Assembly: GCF_003350505.1 (NCBI RefSeq)
Contig: NZ_QQAY01000014.1
Span: 1-24,000 of the forward strand
Direction: 5' to 3'
Length of the DNA: 24,000 nt
DNA from: Falsibacillus pallidus
Lineage (GTDB): Bacteria > Bacillota > Bacilli > Bacillales > DSM-25281
The notes below the pieces were generated by a model. It worked only from the letters and a program-made list of their open reading frames with translations. It made no database searches and was not told the DNA's origin. Made by a program: the position numbers and the translations under genes. This document shows, one piece after another, positions 5,202 through 23,788 of the stretch (positions are counted from its first letter, which is position 1; every line of letters starts with the position of its first letter).

Positions 5202-5998
5202 AAGGAAGACCTTTCTGAAAATGCATCTTCTTCAAGGATTGCCTCTTTAAGCTTCTTGATCGCTTTTCGCTGCAGCCTTGATACGTGCATTTGAGAAATA
5301 CCCAGCATCTCTCCGGCATCTTTCTGGCTCATGTTATCAAGGAACGTATATTGAATGATTGAACGCTCCCTGTCACTCAGTACATGAAGAACCTTCTCCA
5401 GTACAAGCTTTTGGTTGGTTCTTTCATATCCCTCATCAACATTCCCAACAATATCGAGCAGTGTTACTGTACTACCTTCTGAGTCCGCTTCGATTGTATG
5501 ATCCACAGATAGAGCTTGATAGCTTTTACCCATTTCCATCGCTTCCAATACTTCCTCTTCGGAAATACCCAGATGGTCTGCGATTTCAATAACGCGGGGA
5601 GATCGCTGAAGCTCTGTGGTCAATTCTTCAAGCGTTGCTTTTATTTTCGGTCCAAGCTCCTTAATCCTCCTAGGGACGTGGACGCTCCATGTTTTATCTC
5701 TTAGAAACCTTTTGATTTCTCCCACAATCGTCGGGATGGCAAAAGCTTCAAAAGATTTACCGAAAGAATCATCATAGCGCCTGATGGCACCAAGCAAGCC
5801 GATCATGCCGACTTGATAGATGTCTTCATGGTATGACTTCCCTTTGGAATACTTTCGGGCAATGGATTCGACCAGTCTCTGATAGTGGACGACCAGACGA
5901 TCTTGGGCCTCTTGATCACCGTTTTCCTGGAATGCTTTAATCCAGCCATTCACTTGGTCGCGGGTTTGAAAATGATTAGGTTGAGATAGATTCGACAT
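5198..5998 (-). CDS. sigB: RNA polymerase sigma factor SigB (general stress)
   Basis: The protein is highly similar to B. subtilis SigB (KGKSYHEDIYQVGMIGLLGAIRRYD, FAIPTIVGEIKRFLRDKTWSVHVPRRIKELGP, GISQMHVSRLQRKA). I set the start at ATG 5998 (MSNLSQ), which follows an AGGTGG RBS. The ORF-track TTG at 6022 is an over-extension into rsbW. Confidence 0.93.
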   Translation of the reverse strand: MSNLSQPNHFQTRDQVNGWIKAFQENGDQEAQDRLVVHYQRLVESIARKYSKGKSYHEDIYQVGMIGLLGAIRRYDDSFGKSFEAFAIPTIVGEIKRFLRDKTWSVHVPRRIKELGPKIKATLEELTTELQRSPRVIEIADHLGISEEEVLEAMEMGKSYQALSVDHTIEADSEGSTVTLLDIVGNVDEGYERTNQKLVLEKVLHVLSDRERSIIQYTFLDNMSQKDAGEMLGISQMHVSRLQRKAIKKLKEAILEEDAFSERSSL

Positions 5999-9783: not shown

Positions 9784-10134
9784 TTAAAATTCAATAAGTC
9801 CTACACTAATCTGCAGGGCTTCATCCACTTTTTCCATCATTTCATCATCCAAATGAGTGATCTTGTCTGTTAAGCGCTGTTTATCTATTGTCCGGATTTG
9901 CTCCAGCAATATAACGGAGTCACGTTCAAATCCATAGCGCTTTGCGTCAATTTCGACGTGCGTCGGCAGTTTTGCTTTTTGAATTTGTGCGGTTATGGCA
10001 GCGACAATTACAGTGGGACTAAACCGATTCCCTATATCATTTTGGATGACTAAAACTGGACGTACACCGCCTTGCTCAGATCCAACTACCGGGGAAAGGT
10101 CTGCAAAATACACGTCACCACGTTTAACAATCAA
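9784..10134 (-). CDS. ndoA: Type II toxin EndoA / MazF-family mRNA interferase
   Basis: The 116-aa sequence [88 protein letters not shown] is almost identical to B. subtilis NdoA. It uses a TTG start. Confidence 0.96.
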
Positions 10135-15735: not shown

Positions 15736-16204
15736 CGTCTTTCGCCACCCTCGCCAACGCCGATATGGATGACCGCAATTCATCGGCTTCTCTCGTATCA
15801 AGGGCTGGAATATGGTGCGTTGTGGCAGCGGTCGAAACCGTAACTGTCGCAAGATGATATCTTCTCAGCAACGGCCCTTCCACCGTGTCGACATGCTGCA
15901 CCCGGACCATCGGCACTAGTGTTCTTTTTTTGAAAACGATCCCGCTCTGAAGTTCAATCTCTTTCTCACGGACCTCATACCTCCATCTTTTCCATTTCAA
16001 ATTCGGAAAAAGATAGACAAATATGTATACATAAAGGATGCTGACCACACCGCCGCAAAGGATAATCCAAGACGGCCAGTCAAAAATGGAAACAACCGTG
16101 ATGACCCCAAAATATATCGCTAAAATAATCAATGAATGCAGCATCCCCGTTATTCTCCACACTTTCAGGGCTTTATCAGAAATTTTATTCATCGGCTCCC
16201 TCAT
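15728..16204 (-). CDS. ydbS: YdbS-like membrane protein with one bPH_2 (DUF304) domain
   Basis: The 158-aa protein has two TM helices followed by WRYEVREKEIELQSGIVFKKRTLVPMVRVQHVD. It pairs with ydbT, as in B. subtilis. Confidence 0.85.
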   Translation of the reverse strand: MREPMNKISDKALKVWRITGMLHSLIILAIYFGVITVVSIFDWPSWIILCGGVVSILYVYIFVYLFPNLKWKRWRYEVREKEIELQSGIVFKKRTLVPMVRVQHVDTVEGPLLRRYHLATVTVSTAATTHHIPALDTREADELRSSISALARVAKDDV

Positions 16205-16246: not shown

Positions 16247-16272
16247 TACGCATCTACGGGAGGAAAGTTTCA
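16247..16272 (-). promoter_or_regulatory. Sigma-W (ECF) type promoter upstream of ydbS-ydbT
   Basis: The minus strand reads tgTGAAACtttcctcccgtagatgCGTAaataag. This equals the TGAAAC-N16-CGTA sigma-W consensus. From memory, ydbST belongs to the sigma-W regulon in B. subtilis. Confidence 0.65.
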
Positions 16273-16288
16273 CAAAAAAATAAAGGAT

Positions 16289-16315
16289 GCTTCACATGGA
16301 AGCGGCTTTTGACTG
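16289..16315. repeat. Left copy of a 27-bp direct repeat (a degenerate duplicate of the cshA terminator) bracketing repeat element A
   Basis: gcttcacatggaagcggcttttgactg matches 16746-16772 at 25 of 27 positions. Looser similarity extends into the upstream aaaataaa tract. Confidence 0.8.
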
Positions 16316-16717
16316 GGAAGGTGTCTTGAGAAAGTGCCTAGAAAGTGCCTGTCACGCCCCGGATTTTGTCGATTTTTGTAAAATTCAATTGGATCCATCA
16401 ATATGCTTAGCTTGCATTAGGTATATTTAGTAGAAAAAGTGCAAGTGGCGCATAAGATGGTGAGTTTGGCGCATAGCCCCAACCGGCCGGCGCATAGCAG
16501 AGGATTTTTCGCGCATAGAGCCAGAACAGCGGCGCATAGCCGATGGTTTCTGGCGCATAGAGCCTGCAGAAGAGGCTAATCTCCCTTGGAATCCTTGCTT
16601 TTTCGTCATTTAGTCACTCTAACGGACACCATCTGAACCTTTCACCACATCTATATGCTTATTTCGAGGAACATTCACCATCATTTCCACTCATGTCCCT
16701 TCTATTTTCCACCCCAA
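16316..16717. repeat. Copy A of an unclassified ~0.4 kb noncoding dispersed element
   Basis: It aligns by eye along its whole length with 22600-22977 in the same orientation. Exact shared blocks include gtgagtttggcgcatagcccc, accggccggcgcatag, cccttggaatccttgctttttcg, tttagtcactcta and cggacaccatctga. Confidence 0.85.
16447..16560. repeat. Array of six GGCGCATAG motifs at an exact 21-bp period (core of element A)
   Basis: The motif starts at 16447, 16468, 16489, 16510, 16531 and 16552. Variants are ggcgcataa (repeat 1) and cgcgcatag (repeat 4). The 12-bp spacers are unrelated to one another. Confidence 0.9.
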
Positions 16718-16733
16718 TGAACAAAATCAGACG

Positions 16734-16765
16734 AAAATAAAAGCCGCTTCACAAGGAAGCAGCTT
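16734..16765 (-). terminator. Rho-independent terminator of cshA (contains the right copy of the 27-bp direct repeat, 16746-16772)
   Basis: The minus strand reads AAGCTGCTTCcttgtGAAGCGGCTTttattttcg. The stem is 10 positions with one mismatch, followed by a T-rich tail. It starts 8 nt after the cshA stop codon. Confidence 0.75.
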
Positions 16766-16773
16766 TTGACTGA

Positions 16774-22476: not shown

Positions 22477-22599
22477 CTCTTTCCCCCAACATGTTTTTTC
22501 ACAAATCCCCTAAGCCATTTTACTATGAAATAGCCGCGGATAATAGTCTGATTATTCAATCTAGAATAAAAAATGAGGCTTCTTGCCTAAGTGCGTACA

Positions 22600-22977
22600 G
22601 GAAGGTGACTGTTACGCCCCGGGTTTTGTCGATTTATGTAAGAACCACTGGAATTCATTGATATGTGCAGATTTCTATAAGTTTATTTAGTCCAAAAAGT
22701 ACCAGTGGCGCATAGGAGTGTGAGTTTGGCGCATAGCCCCTACCGGCCGGCGCATAGTCGAGGGATTTTCGCGCATAGAACCAGAGAAATCGGTGCATAG
22801 CCGACTGATTCTGGCGCATTAGAGCCTCAGGAAACGGCTATTTACCCTTGGAATCCTTGCTTTTTCGACGTTTAGTCACTCTACCGGACACCATCTGATC
22901 CAATTGCCACATCCATAAGCCTATTCCGAAGAACATTCGCACTAATTTGACCCCATCACCCGCCAATTTCCTCACCA
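22600..22977. repeat. Copy B of the unclassified ~0.4 kb noncoding dispersed element
   Basis: It is collinear with 16316-16717 in the same orientation, with the same block order and the same 6-unit array. Confidence 0.85.
22707..22822. repeat. Array of six GGCGCATAG-type motifs at 21-bp spacing (core of element B)
   Basis: The motif starts at 22707, 22728, 22749, 22770, 22792 and 22813. One interval is 22 bp. Repeat 5 reads ggtgcatag and repeat 6 reads ggcgcattag. Confidence 0.9.
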
Positions 22978-22981
22978 AATA

Positions 22982-23011
22982 GAAAAAATCCGCCAATCAC
23001 CTCGGCGGATT
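22982..23011 (-). terminator. Rho-independent terminator of the 257-aa gene
   Basis: The minus strand reads AATCCGCCgaggtgattGGCGGATTttttctatt. The stem is 8 bp and perfect, followed by a T-run, 3 nt after the stop codon. Confidence 0.85.
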
Positions 23012-23014
23012 CCT

Positions 23015-23788
23015 TTATTTTACGAAAACCTTCCATTCCTTGGTTTTCCGGTCAAAGACTATCTTCCCATCAAGGGGATTAGCCGTTATATTTTGGTATT
23101 CTTCGTACATCTCATCCATATTGACGAAATCGCCGATGACCCAAATGGGAATCTCGATTTTCGTCCTGCTCTGTTCTGCCTTTTCGATCGAAAATAAGAG
23201 TCCTTCTTTCATATCTTCTATAAATGGATAAAGAATTTCTTTCGGCATCACAGGGTAATCTTTTCGCTTTTTCAGTCCAAGAAATGATTTTTCACCTTTA
23301 AAGCTGCTGAGTTTATGGGATAGAGCGGTGCCAAGTACTCCGTAAAAGTCATCCATTGAACGATAATACGTTTTATTGAACCAGCCGTCATCCTGCGCCA
23401 GATACGCAAATTGATTATTCAATTTCCGGTAGAAAGGCAGTCTGAGGTGGCTTTTTGAATGGCTTAAATATAATAATTCAGCGATTTCCTGCCCTTCAAG
23501 CTGATCAAGGGATTCTTCGTCCTCAAAATCCAGCCAGCAGAACCCGCCATATTGATGCACTTCTTCCTTTAAGAGCTTATCGATTTCTTCATCCCCGACA
23601 TATTCTAAAAGCGTATGGCGGTTAAATTCACCATCTTCAAAACGATGTTGCAGCAATAAAAGCTTCCCCGGCAGTTTGGGGACACCTGACATGAACTCTT
23701 TGAATTGAAGCCCATGTGATACGACATATTGATCTGAATGGTTTACATGAACATAGATGAGATTCCGCACATCCTGTGAATGTTTCAA
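23015..23788 (-). CDS. Hypothetical cytoplasmic protein, about 257 aa, acidic, no recognised domain
   Basis: This is a long clean ORF. I set the start at TTG 23788 (MKHSQDV), 7 nt after GGAGGG. The ORF-track TTG at 23818 reads through that RBS. Confidence 0.65.
   Translation of the reverse strand: MKHSQDVRNLIYVHVNHSDQYVVSHGLQFKEFMSGVPKLPGKLLLLQHRFEDGEFNRHTLLEYVGDEEIDKLLKEEVHQYGGFCWLDFEDEESLDQLEGQEIAELLYLSHSKSHLRLPFYRKLNNQFAYLAQDDGWFNKTYYRSMDDFYGVLGTALSHKLSSFKGEKSFLGLKKRKDYPVMPKEILYPFIEDMKEGLLFSIEKAEQSRTKIEIPIWVIGDFVNMDEMYEEYQNITANPLDGKIVFDRKTKEWKVFVK

Follow-up and report, generated by a model that had tools for sequence, protein, structure and literature searches.

Copy B, on the minus strand of the 24,000-nt stretch of Falsibacillus pallidus DNA analysed here (the window, meaning the whole stretch), is securely one of the copies of a mosaic repeat, non-coding and dispersed among intergenic regions, which is found behind terminators. 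Taken as a whole, the element is best read as an intergenic mosaic of the STAR/BIME sort that would have inserted at hairpins, and whose phased core is a candidate for protein binding. The gene order of the window is syntenic with the ydb-ydc region of B. subtilis. Positions 1-1480 hold, on the minus strand, 11 clustered tRNA genes and the 5' end of a 16S rRNA gene; the other genes include tex, the rsb-sigB operon, ndoA/mazF, alr, acpS, ydbT/ydbS, cshA, an esterase gene, murF and ddl.

Two copies of the element are found in the window, copy B at 22590-22982 and copy A at 16329-16738, both on the minus strand. The preliminary description had regarded them as one repeat in a single orientation, and all comparisons agree with this. 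In a repeat search of the window, the interval 16341-16525 pairs with 22601-22785 at 81% identity, and 16558-16728 with 22820-22990 at 75% identity. Copy B is a direct repeat about 80% identical to copy A, as blastn of one against the other gives 79.9% identity over 358 nt, and the mean column identity in a MAFFT alignment of two 500-nt regions is 83%. In this alignment, homology extends from about 22592 in copy B and 16332 in copy A to the T-runs of the upstream terminators. The plus-strand sequence GCGCATAG occurs nine times in the window, against 0.32 occurrences expected, and all nine lie within the two copies.

The organization of the element has been derived from an alignment of 12 copies. 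In gene-sense order it comprises an upstream terminator, an exchangeable 5' module, a box, six motifs, the sequence CCACTGG, a linker and an end motif. All the window features listed below are on the minus strand. Copy B starts directly past the T-run of the terminator of the upstream 257/267-aa gene (22983-23015), which has a 14-bp stem and is conserved in FAL1, a second strain of F. pallidus (CP158866). Its 5' module, of type I (22868-22982), is common to copy A and to the 5' part of the element found at site B of FAL1. The conserved box (22845-22867) reads CCCTTGGAATCCTTGCTTTTTCG on the plus strand and is identical in copies A and B. The array of six motifs (22707-22822) fits the consensus YTATGCGCS on the gene-sense strand, SGCGCATAR on the plus strand. 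Motifs start at 22707, 22728, 22749, 22770, 22792 (GGTGCATAG) and 22813 (GGCGCATTAG), at spacings of 21, 21, 21, 22 and 21 nt, and are arranged as three double units of 42 nt. A variable A+T-rich linker (22634-22706), carrying CCACTGG at the end that adjoins the last motif, leads to the conserved 3' end module (22604-22633; GGTGACTGTTACGCCCCGGGTTTTGTCGAT on the plus strand). A weak 4-bp hairpin followed by a T-run (22566-22589) is located in the flank, outside the repeat; no terminator is detected there, and the hairpin is not kept in FAL1.

Copy A is the same element. The type I 5' module runs to 16738, the box (16583-16605) matches that of copy B, the six motifs (16447-16560) are spaced by 21 nt throughout, and the end module is found at 16344-16373. 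At the end of the element, beside the end motif, an 11-nt sequence is duplicated in tandem (AGAAAGTGCCT twice, 16329-16350). The terminator of cshA (16767-16739, 12 bp in the terminator scan) is included in the right-hand copy of a direct repeat (16727-16772), the left-hand copy of which (16270-16315) is decayed, being 83% identical and having its hairpin weakened to 5 bp. The preliminary description mentions neither this direct repeat nor the six phased motifs.

Additional family members have been searched by scanning one genome per species for GCGCATAG-N12-15 taken three times. This pattern identified 110 loci, of which 7, all in FAL1, share further modules with the window element. FAL1 hosts the element at both orthologous sites, in a syntenic region (locus L116), and eight or more further copies at loci L024, L025, L043, L083, L097, L113 (two copies) and L114. 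Across the two Falsibacillus genomes, the family thus has a minimum of 12 members. The window sequence recurs in a Logan contig from SRR7174675, with 100% identity over both of the element regions compared. The 144-aa DUF4937 protein of the window has a 100% identical counterpart in F. pallidus, and its orthologs are 83% identical in FAL1 and 48% identical in F. albus.

Family members share a core and vary around it. The 5' module is of type I in both window copies and of type II in most FAL1 copies. Family consensus sequences on the gene-sense strand are AAAA.AGCAnGnAAAnCAAGGG for the box and TCGACAAAAACCGGGGCGTGACAGKCACC for the end motif. The A+T-rich linker is not conserved, its length ranging among copies from about 20 to 110 nt, and element boundaries are heterogeneous. 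Complete copies feature six motif positions at 20-22 nt each, one position being degenerate in three copies; the L097 copy is truncated to three motifs. Spacing is 21 nt, now and then 20 or 22, and the distance from the first to the last motif is 104-107 nt in 11 of the 11 six-unit copies. Units alternate, one form being followed by GAAAA and the other by CGG, and a 42-nt super-period results. Spacers are positionally homologous between copies in the 12-copy alignment; for this, and for the size of repeat (9 nt) and spacer (12 nt), a CRISPR array was discarded.

The end of the element features peculiarities of its own. A solo end motif is located at about 4240-4285 of L024, directly after the terminator of a cytidine-deaminase-like gene. 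In L097 (3488-3508) the end motif is a near-perfect palindrome, CGGGGCGTGAC-N-GTCACNCCCCG. Local tandem duplications of 10-18 nt, in a different register each time, are found at the element end beside the end motif not only at window positions 16329-16350, but also in L116 (about 9855-9880 and 16150-16185), L113 and L114.

The preliminary description had noticed that both window copies are found just past terminators and in the orientation of the flanking genes, and had suggested that the element may target this space. Both copies indeed lie directly behind strong minus-strand terminators (23015-22983, 14 bp, and 16767-16739, 12 bp), and run in the direction of the flanking genes. Once the contexts of the 12 copies from two genomes are tabulated, a strong strand bias emerges, and the suggestion gains support: nine of the 12 copies directly follow an intrinsic terminator, and 10 out of 11 share the orientation of the upstream gene, L024 departing from this rule. 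Sense-strand terminators have been identified by a strict script upstream of seven copies (winA, winB, F25, F43, F83, F113b and F116A), and recognised by eye upstream of two others (F114 and F116B); another copy comes second in a tandem pair. The strand of the element tracks the replichore in FAL1, copies being on the plus strand at 0.26-0.87 Mb and on the minus strand at 3.2-3.6 Mb, and the polarities of transcription and replication are therefore inseparable. In L113, a tandem pair of elements (1923-2480 and 2677-2790) is found between a terminator and a SAM riboswitch leader, which indicates that elements tolerate, or prefer, sites upstream of regulated leaders.

Hairpins are found also at the opposite end of the window copies. 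The hairpin with T-run reported earlier at the left end of both holds for copy A, where 16303-16289 is listed as a 5-bp stem; next to copy B, 22589-22577 forms a stem of only 4 bp and is unlisted. The two hairpins have no homology to each other in the MAFFT alignment, and are not kept at the orthologous FAL1 loci. The one at copy A is a decaying, target-derived duplicate of the cshA terminator. A direct repeat of 39-46 nt that holds the whole of this terminator flanks copy A (p<0.005 against shuffles), and the repeat is still visible in FAL1, where the left-hand copy is more decayed than in the window. The supposed terminator of the element itself is consequently not an element feature, corresponding to a decaying duplicated target in one case and to an unconserved 4-bp stem in the other. 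Similarly, a 21-nt direct repeat, made of a GGGACA..TGTCCC hairpin, is found on both sides of the L114 copy. GGGACA(N7)TGTCCC hairpins are a second small repeat, recurrent in Falsibacillus intergenic regions, as at about 4100-4600 of L114 and about 3290-3320 of L024.

Insertions are old. Flanking genes of the two F. pallidus strains encode proteins 96-98% identical, and are 78% identical at four-fold sites. As the element is present at both orthologous sites in both strains, insertions predate the strain split. The syntenic comparison revealed no element at site B of F. albus. Copy A shares 80% identity with copy B, more than with its positional ortholog (75%), and positional orthologs have different 5' modules; both observations point to gene conversion or module exchange. 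Tandem or nested copies are found in L113, at site B of L116 and in L024.

Many of these data would fit a selfish, non-autonomous mobile element targeting hairpins or terminators, whose repeats and end motif are recognised by a transposase or recombinase from a gene located elsewhere. The place behind terminators would then denote choice of a target, not function. Hairpin-containing target duplications at two independent sites, presence in F. pallidus and absence in F. albus, tandem and nested copies, solo and palindromic versions of the end motif and local duplications at the 3' end are all in favour, and the orientation bias fits strand-specific insertion. The hypothesis is nonetheless somewhat unlikely, because repeat searches with the window copies detected no terminal inverted repeats at the element ends, near-identical copies are missing (the best pair is about 80% identical), no transposase adjoins any copy, and boundaries are heterogeneous. 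A MITE, or another derivative of a DDE transposon, was rejected on similar grounds: ends lack inverted repeats, and flanking duplications, found at 2 independent sites only, are long (21 and 39-46 nt) and hairpin-sized.

The pattern of sequence change is also hard to reconcile with immobile selfish DNA. Window copies have been compared to their positional orthologs in FAL1, which were obtained by synteny and not by motif. The 7-nt core of the motif shows 3 changes out of 85 positions, the spacers 41 out of 121 (34%; Fisher p=3e-8). Information content is accordingly 1.6-1.9 bits at TATGCGC, and about 0-0.5 bits in the spacers. Motif and phase are thus maintained, and the intervening sequence evolves at or above the neutral rate. 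This conservation could partly reflect gene conversion from other copies, since copy A is nearer to copy B than to its ortholog. Old, fixed window copies that keep their motifs under apparent purifying selection are unexpected if the element is selfish and immobile.

The preliminary description had also considered an independently transcribed minus-strand RNA of about 400 nt with its own terminator, while finding no convincing conserved sigma-A promoter at the right end. The latter remark was confirmed, as a scan for sigma-70-like promoters gave no minus-strand match within copies A and B, and no sigma-A, sigma-H, sigma-B, sigma-E or sigma-G promoter motif conserved between copies was recognised by eye in the 5' module. 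The independent RNA was not corroborated. Rfam 15 gives no match over copies A and B, either at the gathering threshold or at E<=10, and eight related loci are equally devoid of matches. For copy B, predicted folds are no more stable than those of shuffled sequences (MFE z = +0.86 and +0.77 for the two strands). RNAalifold finds pairings only among the self-complementary GCGC cores and no other conserved structure; strong alifold z-scores, which might be mistaken for covariation, are an artefact of the self-complementary GCGC present in each repeat. A conserved hairpin before the first motif is not significant. The 5' part is swapped between positional orthologs, and left-end hairpins are derived from flank or target. 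A structured non-coding RNA gene was rejected because of the positive fold z, the pairings confined to GCGC, the missing promoter and the non-homologous, decaying 3' hairpins, and the element does not appear to be an independent structured RNA gene.

An unstructured RNA might function in a different way. A minus-strand transcript, originating at an unrecognised promoter or from terminator read-through, would display six CUAUGCGC(C/G) motifs and act as a CsrB-like sponge for an RNA-binding protein or a small RNA. Co-orientation with the upstream gene in 10 of 11 copies would be explained, as would be the lack of structure in the motif region (z about +0.8), which is what single-stranded display of the sites requires, and the presence of a hairpin and T-run of some kind after both window copies. 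Such an RNA is unlikely all the same. Next to the lack of a conserved promoter, of covariation and of an Rfam family, the upstream terminators are strong, with stems of 12-14 bp and T-runs; the 5' module, where a promoter is expected, is exchanged between positional orthologs; and distal hairpins are non-homologous and decaying. A strict 21-nt phasing is moreover unnecessary for a sponge, and arrays of opposite polarity are found in Bhargavaea (see below).

Arrays are similarly not protein-coding. A coding repeat of heptads was taken into account, arrays being stop-free in several frames, yet no frame is common to the copies. Spacings of 20 or 22 nt interrupt the frame in 5 of 12 copies, copy B included, and third positions of the would-be codons are invariant. 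Open reading frames run through the arrays because 21 nt correspond to 7 codons and the repeats are devoid of stop codons. The 60-aa ORF of copy A (16427-16609, minus strand) and the 92-aa gene called in FAL1 (L116, 15823-16101, plus strand) are likely annotation artefacts.

Arrays of the same motif are found in other Bacillales. In six Bhargavaea genomes, 21 arrays have been identified (loci L007-L115), which feature 3-5 GCGCATAG units at 21 nt and usually end with an inverted copy, usually GCGCATAGnnnnCTATGCGC. A same-strand intrinsic terminator precedes 17 of the 21, and arrays are found 7-40 nt past intrinsic terminators, as in L018, L029, L054, L057 and L115. With respect to the upstream gene, the arrays point the opposite way from those of Falsibacillus. 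Orthologous loci of five species retain the arrays, although spacers have diverged; at five orthologous loci, motifs are identical and spacers 21% different, a comparison carrying some ascertainment bias. Arrays are found also in Halobacillus, Virgibacillus, Paenisporosarcina and Siminovitchia. Most of the matches of the scan outside Bacillales are plain tandem repeats.

A metagenome scan added 120 loci, some of which feature alternating spacers and as many as about 25 units; the Falsibacillus-specific array pattern had zero matches in metagenomes. Long YTATGCGCG arrays with 21-nt period are found in L118, L141, L160, L163, L173, L195, L200, L204, L223 and others. They feature two alternating spacer types, and hence a 42-nt super-period, and lie in Bacillota-like chromosomal intergenic regions, for example in a flgG-fabZ region or beside pepF. 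Plasmid and phage sequences have no blastn match to the element or to a long metagenomic array. Viral contigs gave nothing with three element-specific patterns (the box and two end-motif patterns); four stretches detected in them by the three-motif array pattern were judged to be unrelated tandem repeats. Literature searches on the motif, on 21-bp intergenic repeats in Bacillaceae and on the B. subtilis '190-bp element' gave nothing relevant.

Motif repeats are also found next to genes for a specific protein. In five unrelated genomes of Proteobacteria/Acidobacteria type, 3-5 direct TTGCGCATAG repeats plus a terminal inverted copy, at 20-21 nt, are located immediately upstream of a wHTH-Fic gene (L035, L050, on the minus strand around 5546-5611, L055, L093, 6108-6182, and L106). 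The encoded protein, of about 460 aa, combines a winged-helix region at the N terminus with a Fic domain (PF02661). Judging from their position, these repeats are probably an autoregulatory operator. They resemble the Falsibacillus arrays for the same 8-mer, the 20-21-nt period and the succession of direct repeats and inverted copy, and differ because they are single-copy, include 3-5 units and are placed in front of a presumed target gene. No wHTH-Fic gene is found near the Falsibacillus copies. Clustering of the ORFs within 2 kb of arrays revealed no recurrent family beyond orthologs and the Fic group, and no recurrent gene adjoins the Bacillales arrays. Two candidate binders were dismissed. 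The 152-aa gene of L024, downstream of the sole inverted copy, encodes a cytidine-deaminase-like protein, and the gene following one Bhargavaea array belongs to an ordinary arsR-arsB operon, missing at the orthologous array of another species.

The Falsibacillus element can be compared to known repeats. STARs of S. aureus are interspersed intergenic direct repeats, in which a 14-bp motif, T(G/A/T)TGTTG(G/T)GGCCC(C/A), is found in 1-7 units separated by spacers of at least 40 bp (PMC3532100). Both families are chromosomal, intergenic and multi-copy in Bacillales, are made of a short G+C-rich direct motif and variable spacers, and occupy loci conserved within lineages; the function and spread of STARs are likewise obscure. 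In contrast, the Falsibacillus motif is the 9-mer YTATGCGCS, with strict 21-nt period, six units and conserved flanking modules, and there is no sequence similarity, the STAR consensus being absent from the element. The latter is therefore an interspersed direct repeat of the STAR sort in kind only. Resemblance to the REP/BIME elements of enterobacteria concerns the extragenic location at gene 3' ends, the mosaic of conserved modules and concerted evolution. BIMEs are known protein-binding sites, for gyrase and IHF. They are made, however, of inverted palindromic REP units tied to the RAYT transposase, whereas the Falsibacillus core consists of direct repeats; niche and mosaic structure fit, the core is not palindromic, and one end motif (L097) is. 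Group IIC introns are similarly found just downstream of intrinsic terminators and co-oriented with the upstream gene. The niche fits, but the element has no match to Intron_gpII or group-II Rfam models, no domain V and no stable fold, and measures about 400 nt only; an intron of this type was excluded. The element shares sequence with none of STARs, REP/BIMEs and group IIC introns.

The geometry of the core recalls instead sites bound by proteins. LytTR regulators recognise 9-bp repeats with 12 bp in between (PMC2766830). Direct repeats of 9-10 bp, spacers of 11-12 bp, a 21-bp period and exposure on one face of the helix are shared by LytTR sites, iterons and the Falsibacillus arrays. Theta replicons feature arrays of 5-7 iterons at about 22 bp. 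LytTR sites are paired and located upstream of promoters, and iterons adjoin a rep gene, whereas the sites of the Falsibacillus element are six, dispersed and behind terminators, with neither regulator nor rep gene adjacent. An origin-like or incompatibility-like iteron cluster of plasmid, phage or satellite derivation, which titrates or is fired by a Rep-type initiator, is suggested by the six direct repeats at about 21 bp found beside an A+T-rich stretch in the window copies. It is very improbable, given ten or more dispersed chromosomal copies, no similarity to plasmid or phage records or to viral contigs, no rep gene in the flanks and no DnaA boxes noticed on reading copies A and B. An A+T-rich linker unconserved between copies is a further objection, and with the missing rep gene and the missing plasmid or phage similarity led to rejection of an iteron-type origin.

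Motifs of 9 nt set two helical turns apart, spacers free to vary and a geometry shared with LytTR sites, iterons and wHTH-Fic repeats favour a function at the DNA level. The selected core would be a helically phased docking array for a putative sequence-specific DNA-binding protein; the interpretation is tentative, with a little less than an even chance of being correct. The element has the conserved sites and the phasing of an operator array, and the cognate protein is putative. The repeats upstream of wHTH-Fic genes, operator-like and sharing 8-mer and 20-21 nt spacing, are counted as a precedent for DNA binding. Some observations go against a docking array. The Bacillales arrays have no recurrent neighbouring gene. 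The strand bias (10 of 11 copies), itself confounded with replication direction, is more naturally expected from an RNA-level function or from strand-specific insertion. The opposite polarity of the Bhargavaea arrays makes a single polar function hard to formulate, and gene conversion may account for part of the motif conservation.

The history and the working of the element may be pictured as follows. The element would have reached its sites via insertion or recombination at hairpins, and modules would later have been swapped between copies through gene conversion. Six sites, set at intervals of two helical turns and all facing one side of the DNA, would allow the cooperative docking of a sequence-specific DNA-binding protein. 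Binding might serve as a roadblock or insulator behind terminators, titrate the protein, or offer a handle to a recombinase.

In a bolder extension, YTATGCGCS arrays with 21-nt period would make up an undescribed chromosomal system, in which a dedicated putative protein coats phased arrays behind terminators, where it might be a fail-safe (roadblock or insulator) or provide a handle on supercoiling or topology at the ends of genes. The system would span Falsibacillus (six units), Bhargavaea (3-5 units), other Bacillales and metagenomic Bacillota-like contigs (up to 25 units). Such an extension is speculative and, taken as a whole, rather unlikely.

Intergenic repeats scattered over genomes, REP/BIME, STAR, BOX and ERIC among them, are common, and most have no known function. 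The Falsibacillus family offers a cleaner handle on the problem than most, as it combines a 9-base motif under purifying selection with exact phasing at two turns, a constant number of six sites and a terminator niche that recurs from copy to copy; motif, phasing and niche make the function experimentally tractable. ORFs called across such arrays, as the 92-aa gene of FAL1 and the 60-aa ORF of copy A, are likely artefacts, and annotation should take this into account. The occurrence of motif arrays in several Bacillales genera, along with the probable wHTH-Fic operator, suggests a wider protein-DNA recognition module, not described so far.
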